From: Escherichia coli
GTDB taxonomy: Bacteria; Pseudomonadota; Gammaproteobacteria; Enterobacterales; Enterobacteriaceae
DNA: 46,463 nucleotides
Assembly (NCBI RefSeq): GCF_003334255.1
Contig: NZ_QOWU01000044.1
Strand: one strand, 5' to 3'
Positions 29,735 through 31,563 of this stretch are shown here, piece by piece. The position numbers and the translations under genes are program-made. Below the pieces are notes generated by a model. That model worked only from the letters and a program-made list of their open reading frames with translations, made no database searches and was not told the origin of the DNA. The first letter of the stretch is position 1. Each line of letters starts with the position of its first letter.

Positions 29735-29772
29735 GTTCTCTGTAAGCCTTATTTTATTGAAGCACGCAGGAT

Positions 29773-29808
29773 AGCTAACACGTGTACGCTGAACAAGTCC
29801 GATCAGTT
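29773..29808 (-). promoter_or_regulatory. fabA promoter operators: FabR site followed by FadR site
   Basis: Reverse complement reads AACTGATCGGACTTGTTC (FadR-like ANCTGGTCNGAC) then AGCGTACACGTGTTAGCT (FabR palindrome). Confidence 0.75.
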
Positions 29809-31563
29809 CGGAATAAACCAGTTCAGCCAACGTAATGGCCATGGAAAACGGTGACGTCCTTCCTGTTGCGATGCTTGCGCGATACGTTCCTGGATGGTTT
29901 GCATCAGCGTCGTTTGGCCTTCGCCATCCCACACCAGATTTAATAATAACGGCAGTGCGTCAGTCACATCGTCTACTGCCCAGATGGTGAATTTGCCTTC
30001 TTCTACCGCTTTCACCAGTTCACTGTGAAGACTTAAATGGCGAACGTTAGCTGTGGGGATAATGACACCTTGTTTCCCGGTTAACTCACGTTGCTGGCAA
30101 ATAGCAAAGAAGCCTTCGATTTTCTCATTTAAACCACCGACCGGCTGGGCGCGACCGAACTGATCGACTGAACCTGTGATAGCGATACTCTGATTCACCG
30201 GCACATCGGCGAGGGCGCTTATCAGGGCGCAGAGTTCAGCCATCGAGGCACTATCTCCATCAACTTCACTGTATGACTGCTCAAATGTCAGCGATGCTGA
30301 GAAGGGGATCTGTTGCTCAAGCTGTAGTTCCGACATCAGGAACGCTTGCATGATCATCATCCCTTTCGCATGGATATTGCCGCCAAGCTCCGCTTTGCGT
30401 TCGATGTCGGTGAATTCACCATCGCCAATATGCACAACGCAGCTAATGCGAGAAGGTTCGCCAAAAGCGCGTGGATGACCCGGAAATTCAATGACCGAAA
30501 GGGCGTTAATTTGCCCGATGCGTTCGCCTTCGGTTTCAATCAGGATTTGCTCCTGAAGGATCTCATCCTGCATACGTTCAGCGAGGAAACCTTCGCGCCA
30601 TTCACGCTGCTGCAGCATTAAGTTTAGCTGCTCGCCGGAGAAGGTGTCGCCATCACACAGGGAGGCGACCTCTTTACACTGGCGGAGGATCCACTGCGGG
30701 CTAAGCGGAAGTGTTTCTTGTTCACCGGTGTAGCGTGCTGCTTCGCGGATAAGTATCGGCCAGGCATCCGCTCCCGGTGCAGGTAAGTGATTATGTCTGG
30801 CGGTAAATGTCACCCAGCGACACCACTGGGTTACTGACTCCGCATCGACAATCTGCAGAGTATCTTCAAATTCGCTATAAATAGCCTGCTCTGAAAGCTC
30901 TGGCTCCATCTCCTGGAAATCAGCCAATGATTCGCGTTCGCCTACCAGAATGACTTTCAGCTTCAATGGCATCGAAGGCACAGAGACGGGGAGAGGGCGC
31001 GACTCATCAAACGCAACCCAGTCAAAACGCTCGCGGTTAACGATATTTTTCAGCCGCATCCACAGCAGAGGTTGCGCCAGCAGTGTACGCAAAGAGATAA
31101 TGAGAATACCGCCATTTGCCTGATGCACCAGACCAGGCTGCAGGGTAATGTCGCCATTAAACTGGCGCAGGCAGCCAAAGAGTTGCTCCGCTTCTACCCA
31201 GTCGGCAGCGACAACTTGCGTTAAAGTCGCAAAATTATCATCTGCACTCACTGCGTGACGTAAGCGGATGGAGTGGCCGGAAACCTCATAGTGACCGCCC
31301 ACCAGTTGGCCTGCATCGCTTTGTAGCGTACGCGCGGCATTGGCAATAAGATTCAGATACTCAGACTCTTCCGGGGCCTTCGCCAGCATAAAAGAGGAGG
31401 ATGCTCGCGTATGCAGCAACTGCTCCAGCGCAAATTGCAGCCGCGGTTGAGTATCACTGAATAAAGGATCGTTTTCGTCAATCAAATGTGGCTGAGCAAA
31501 TATTTCCTGATAGCTATCGGTATCAGGAACCAGGTCACGCCATGCAAGTTTCGTAATGGTCAA
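29803..31563 (-). CDS. ycbZ: Lon-like protease homolog YcbZ
   Basis: 586 aa, [22 protein letters not shown]...; C-terminal Lon protease domain. Confidence 0.92.

Follow-up and report, generated by a model that had tools for sequence, protein, structure and literature searches.

The window analyzed here is a 46,463-nucleotide stretch of an Escherichia coli genome (contig NZ_QOWU01000044.1 of RefSeq assembly GCF_003334255.1), and all positions given below count from its first letter. On the minus strand, fabA (29216 to 29734) encodes a protein of 172 amino acids, with its ATG at 29734 and a translation that starts MVDKRESY; the gene is named fabA in the annotation of K-12 and of other E. coli genomes. 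Upstream of it on the same strand lies ycbZ (29803 to 31563; 586 amino acids), recognized as the gene of a Lon-like protease homologue from its open reading frame (ORF), the K-12 annotation, and Pfam. The counterparts in K-12 MG1655 are b0954 (fabA) and b0955 (ycbZ, annotated as “putative ATP-dependent protease YcbZ”), and the 68-bp intergenic gap between the two genes has the same length in K-12. The window is 100% identical to MG1655 over 201 bp that run from the 3′ end of ycbZ across the gap into the beginning of fabA. A 351-bp query around the site had matches in 5,426 of 5,426 complete E. coli genomes, with an identity of at least 99% in 5,424 of them. Two Pfam domains were detected in YcbZ, AAA_32 at residues 140 to 225 (E = 1.4e-13) and Lon_C at residues 435 to 539 (E = 4.2e-10), and it is justified to describe the protein as a predicted Lon-like protease that combines a LonB-type AAA domain with an S16 Lon C-terminal proteolytic domain.

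A scan of positions 29600 to 30150 found no terminator-like structure on the minus strand between ycbZ and fabA, and transcripts of ycbZ are therefore expected to run into the fabA promoter and gene. At the other end of fabA, an 11-bp-stem hairpin present on both strands (29164 to 29188; GAAACCTCCGC...GCGGAGGTTTC), with T runs on either side, lies between fabA and the convergent gene rmf (28979 to 29146, plus strand) and is probably a bidirectional terminator that these two genes share. The fabA frame itself stays open upstream, across both of the operators described below, as far as a GTG at 29932 (29735 to 29932, minus strand), which gives an ORF of 238 amino acids. This longer frame is spurious, an artifact of the absence of an in-frame stop, and does not point to a longer FabA.

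Two adjoining regulatory sites precede fabA, both read on the minus strand. The operator of the GntR-family activator FadR is a 17-mer, AACTGATCGGACTTGTT, at 29792 to 29808 (−74 to −58 from the ATG), and that of the TetR-family repressor FabR is an 18-bp imperfect palindrome, AGCGTACACGTGTTAGCT, at 29773 to 29790 (−56 to −39); the spacing between them is one base (C, 29791). Each has a single exact match in the window, where even with up to three mismatches only 0.07 matches to the FadR 17-mer and 0.01 matches to the FabR 18-mer would be expected by chance. Matches to a FadR matrix are easily had, about 100 in the window at 6 bits or more, and one could hold on that ground that the two sites merely resemble a consensus by chance and have no function. 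We consider the probability of this to be practically nil, as the matches are exact over 17 and 18 bases, published probes with the same sequence bind FadR, and the position and spacing of both are conserved in about 80 species. The matrix was built from seven published E. coli sites taken from probes, with the fabA site among them, so that the score of the FadR site at 29792 to 29808, the highest in the window at 19.4 bits, is partly circular. The second-best score, 14.7 bits, belongs to GTCTGGTACGATCAATT at 15703 to 15719 (plus strand), within the fimbrial gene elfG. This match, which sits inside a gene, was set aside as a FadR site and is probably due to chance.

The published electrophoretic mobility shift assay (EMSA) probe for E. 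coli fabA (fabA_ec-BD, also fabA-F; TTTATTCCGAACTGATCGGACTTGTTCAGCGTACACGTGTTAGCTATCCTGCGTGC) is identical to the window (PMC4537474, PMC4259882), and our identification of the two operators with the published sites rests on such probe sequences and on secondary statements. The same two papers label the fabA sites “putative FadR-binding sites” and “predicted FabR palindromes”. The E. coli fabA probe was bound in EMSA by FadR from three species, and reversal of FadR binding by long-chain acyl-CoA was described for the Shewanella fabA site (PMC4537474). FadR activates fabA and is freed by long-chain acyl-CoA (PMC4804515, PMC4537474), and FabR binds and represses fabA (PMC4804515, PMC11226057, PMC4537474). 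The E. coli fabB promoter, as judged from published probes, is arranged in the same way, a FadR site (GGCTGATCGGACTTGTT) followed by a FabR palindrome (GGCGTACAAGTGTACGCT) with one base between them, and its FadR site has the same operator core, CTGATCGGACTTGTT, as the fabA site. It differs from fabA in lacking any known upstream ORF that ends within the FadR site.

The FadR site and FabR palindrome of K-12 fabA were reportedly treated by Henry and Cronan in 1991 and 1992, by Zhang et al. in 2002, and by Feng and Cronan in 2009 and 2011. An earlier note on this DNA, made from the sequence alone, had placed the operators 39 to 75 bp upstream of fabA and called this the known E. coli arrangement. 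The positions found here, −74 to −39, agree with it to within one base, and the alignment with K-12 contained no mismatch over the 201 bp. Given that identity, the matching probes, and the equal gap, the arrangement is indeed the known one: the window does not differ from the K-12 fabA promoter in sequence, gap, or site positions and carries that locus from a different E. coli genome. The fabA operators here are those of a well-studied E. coli promoter, already known and ordinary.

A FadR-dependent promoter core can be placed, from the sequence and from published work that puts FadR over the −40 and FabR over the −10 region (PMC3462791), at 29768 to 29796 on the minus strand. Its putative elements are a −35-like TTGTTC at 29791 to 29796, which shares bases with the right end of the FadR site, a −10-like TATCCT at 29768 to 29773, and a start site at about 29758 to 29762, all on the minus strand. 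With the hexamers assigned in this way, the 17-nucleotide (nt) spacer between them would be the FabR palindrome less its last base. A sigma-70 consensus scan of 29600 to 30150 returned no promoter, and the proposed core matches the consensus at 8 of 12 positions, which is under the threshold; a subthreshold match is expected for an activator-dependent promoter, and we do not count it against a promoter at this place. Published work describes two fabA promoters, with the usual start downstream of the FabR site and a shift of the start, upon deletion of fadR, to a promoter inside the FabR region (PMC11226057, PMC7083825). In the mechanism described in the literature, a FadR dimer on 29792 to 29808, with its center some 40 bp upstream of the main start and lying over the −35 element, would activate fabA, and expression would fall when long-chain acyl-CoA frees FadR. 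FabR on 29773 to 29790 would fill the stretch from the −35 to the −10 element, touch the −10 element, and repress transcription. Without FadR, transcription would move to the weaker promoter in the FabR-bound region.

Control DNA of fabA also occurs deeper within ycbZ. Xu et al. (2020, PMC7083825) described a CpxR-dependent, acid-induced fabA promoter, and its CpxR box, GTAGAagaagGCAAA, is present in the window as an exact and unique match at 29992 to 30006 on the minus strand (−272 to −258 from the ATG). The CpxR DNase I footprint reported in that work (−287 to −255) corresponds to 29989 to 30021, and the third, acid-induced fabA start, S3 (−203), corresponds to 29937. Like the FadR site, the CpxR box is fabA control DNA in ycbZ, but it is wholly coding and lies about 60 codons before the stop. 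The box, the footprint, and the S3 start lie about 190 to 290 bp beyond the region flagged by the earlier note, which omitted them; as published, fabA control is entangled with more of ycbZ than was recorded there.

The FadR operator begins within ycbZ. Its positions 1 to 6 (29803 to 29808, minus strand) are the codon AAC of Asn586 (29806 to 29808) and the stop codon TGA (29803 to 29805), so that the overlap comprises 6 of the 17 operator bases, and the ycbZ stop is part of the operator half-site CTGATC. We compared this arrangement with 80 fabA loci of other species, taken from one-genome-per-species contigs; in 78 of them, ycbZ precedes fabA in the same orientation. Across Enterobacterales, the FadR-FabR pair is conserved together with its 1-bp gap, and it is recognizable in Vibrio and Pasteurellaceae. 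The gap is kept in most of the 80 loci, and the FabR palindrome occurs at the same distance, with 0 to 4 mismatches, in most of the 80 loci. The ycbZ stop falls on FadR operator positions 4 to 6 in 51 of the 78 loci and is TGA in 44 of these; in four more loci (L045, L055, L075, and L078), the TGA in the site is displaced by one base. This stop position is common to most Enterobacterales, one Vibrio (Vibrio penaeicida), and two Haemophilus, and the YcbZ proteins of the Vibrio and the two Haemophilus are only about 40% identical to that of E. coli. Among Enterobacteriaceae, AAC TGA is invariant (26 of 26 loci) beside four preceding codons that vary (IP, TP, SA, NS, QS, GS, GA, MP, IR, and others).

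In several genera, ycbZ ends before the operator is reached. The gene stops 11 to 13 nt before an intact FadR site in Photorhabdus, Proteus, and Morganella and 20 nt earlier, without overlap, in Pectobacterium, Dickeya, and Brenneria, and the YcbZ tail is shorter in all of these. Versions of the ycbZ ORF that continued through both operators, in Photorhabdus, Proteus, and one Pectobacterium, were rejected; the true stops are 11 to 20 nt upstream of the FadR site. Seven Erwiniaceae loci (L033, L039, L041, L054, L056, L058, and L066) have TAA as the ycbZ stop at the same position. The TAA costs the half-site its G (TTAAyC in place of CTGATC), and in these Erwiniaceae the classical FadR site is degenerate.

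The operator's own TGA closes ycbZ, and Morganellaceae and Pectobacteriaceae end the gene earlier without overlap; for these reasons, we conclude from the sequence comparison that the constraint runs from the operator to the ORF, covering two codons, and that the overlap is probably a by-product of compact packing. The claims of the earlier note about the gene end hold in a narrower form. The FadR site does overlap the last ycbZ codons, a correct but generous wording for one sense codon and the stop (6 bp). Regulation of fabA is entangled with the end of a Lon-like protease gene, as the overlap and the AAA_32 and Lon_C domains of YcbZ indicate, and the 3′ end of ycbZ is constrained, judging from the invariant AAC TGA next to variable codons, over a width of only two codons. 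Operator positions 1 and 2 may be an exception to control by the operator itself: they are AA throughout Enterobacteriaceae, fabA of E. coli included, in contrast to GG or AG in other families and GG in E. coli fabB, and the invariant AA may be held by slow change at nonsynonymous codon positions and not by FadR.

A constraint in the reverse direction, in which selection on the C-terminal residues of YcbZ holds these bases and thereby limits the FadR operator, is extremely unlikely. The motif WPLRWL(N)WF near the end of YcbZ is conserved as protein, with synonymous codons for Pro, Leu, and Arg that vary freely, and selection on that part of the tail would fit such a direction. However, the last three or four residues of YcbZ vary widely in Enterobacteriaceae, Pectobacteriaceae and Morganellaceae have a truncated tail, and the core of the operator is also found in the published E. 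coli fabB probe.

The overlap might instead couple the two genes functionally, if ycbZ read-through or ribosomes at the ycbZ stop altered FadR occupancy, or if FadR and FabR blocked ycbZ transcripts, so that protease expression and unsaturated fatty acid synthesis would be linked. The shared strand of ycbZ and fabA without an intervening terminator, the published fabA start sites and CpxR box within ycbZ, and the conservation of the ycbZ-fabA order from Vibrio to Escherichia are all compatible with such coupling. We nevertheless regard it as very unlikely, given that several lineages have kept the ycbZ-fabA order and both operators with a ycbZ that ends 11 to 20 nt before the FadR site, and the overlap is thus dispensable. 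The literature examined contained no link between YcbZ and lipid metabolism, and ycbZ went unmentioned in two of the main papers, which were searched for it.

The best explanation of the whole, which we hold to be about 95% probable, is that this region is the canonical fabA control region, that it works by the mechanism described in the literature, and that its overlap with ycbZ is incidental. Under this explanation, ycbZ lies on the same strand without an intervening terminator, and its frame ends at the TGA within the CTGATC half-site. The operator would fix where ycbZ stops and which codon comes last and leave the YcbZ tail upstream free to vary, and the overlap would be a by-product of tight gene packing without regulatory coupling of the protease to lipid synthesis.

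The loci of other genera contain a second palindrome of the FadR/GntR type. In 12 genera (Yersinia, Serratia, Hafnia, Erwinia, Pantoea, Tatumella, Acerihabitans, Rahnella, Cedecea, Shimwellia, Mangrovibacter, and “Enterobacter Ag1”), the YcbZ tail reads Asn-Trp-Phe-Asn-Gln/His and is coded AAC TGG TTy AAC CAn, which yields (C)TGGTTnAACCA(G). The palindrome in these genera is centered 15 bp upstream of the classical FadR site and lies about 80 to 100 nt before the fabA ATG (loci L040, L049, L054, L041, L029, L031, L032, and L048). At the two tail Asn positions, 21 of 21 and 20 of 21 loci use AAC; as a control, five further YcbZ columns with fully conserved Asn have 6 to 10 AAC versus 11 to 15 AAT (about 40% AAC). 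The Phe codon at the center of the palindrome is free (7 TTC versus 5 TTT, with one locus per genus). In the 431 kb of fetched sequence, the string TGGTTnAACCA has 24 occurrences, all of them at this spot.

Lineages with altered ycbZ ends bear on the same point. In Pectobacteriaceae, ycbZ was shortened by six codons through a nonsense change, and the halves ACTGGTT...CCAG persist there as noncoding DNA, while the bases that flank the palindrome and those at its center vary and the left half of the classical FadR site is lost. Among the Erwiniaceae with TAA stops, the palindrome is intact in 5 of 7 loci; two Rosenbergiella loci have neither site. Pasteurella bettyae has AACTGGTTTAACCAGGT at the canonical position beside the FabR palindrome, in noncoding DNA. 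In an alignment of Yersinia, Serratia, Erwinia, Pantoea, Pectobacteriaceae, and E. coli, ACTGGTT is present in 10 of 10 sequences and the right-half CCA in 9 of 10, missing only in E. coli. These patterns suggest that the palindrome may be conserved at the DNA level, beyond the peptide that it encodes. An RNA hairpin is an unlikely reading of it, with a 5-bp stem, a 3-nt loop, invariant bases, and no compensatory changes.

With the seven-site E. coli matrix, the second palindrome of other genera scores 5 to 8 bits because it has T at position 8 and A at position 10, where the known sites have C and G; all seven published E. coli FadR sites used have G at position 10. The core consensus of FadR-type sites, as reportedly given in papers on FadR-DNA crystal structures, is TGGNNNNNCCA. 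A literature search of a limited collection with the palindrome sequences retrieved nothing relevant. Two FadR palindromes at a single promoter have a precedent in fadL and fadD (PMC4259882), from which the window differs in having one intact site. Tentatively, and as a possibility that falls short of likely, we propose that outside the Escherichia-Citrobacter-Enterobacter group the palindrome, spelled by the last six YcbZ codons, is a DNA-selected candidate for a second regulator site, or for a replacement site in Pectobacteriaceae and many Erwiniaceae. What E. coli retains is a relic of the left half (CTGGT), which reads CTGGTTTATTCCG at 29809 to 29821 on the minus strand, spans YcbZ codons Asn581 to Pro585, and scores 2.2 bits with the same matrix; the right half is lost. 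As only the left half survives in the window, the verdict on the E. coli operators is unchanged by the second palindrome, an observation that may be new.

Overall, the promoter identified here is of use chiefly for anchoring annotation and for illustrating, cleanly and on a small scale, how an operator fixes the end of a neighboring gene. Control of fabA can be harmed when the 3′ end of ycbZ is deleted or tagged (for example in C-terminal fusions or Keio-type knockouts), because the FadR site starts in ycbZ and the CpxR box and the third promoter are found as far as about 290 bp into the gene. If the proposal for the second palindrome is true, the YcbZ tail in the species that carry it would be largely translated fabA regulatory DNA, and E. 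coli would represent a derived state that keeps the left half only. The comparison would then illustrate the coevolution of a promoter element with a protein tail and the way in which an activator site can move between adjacent positions in different families.
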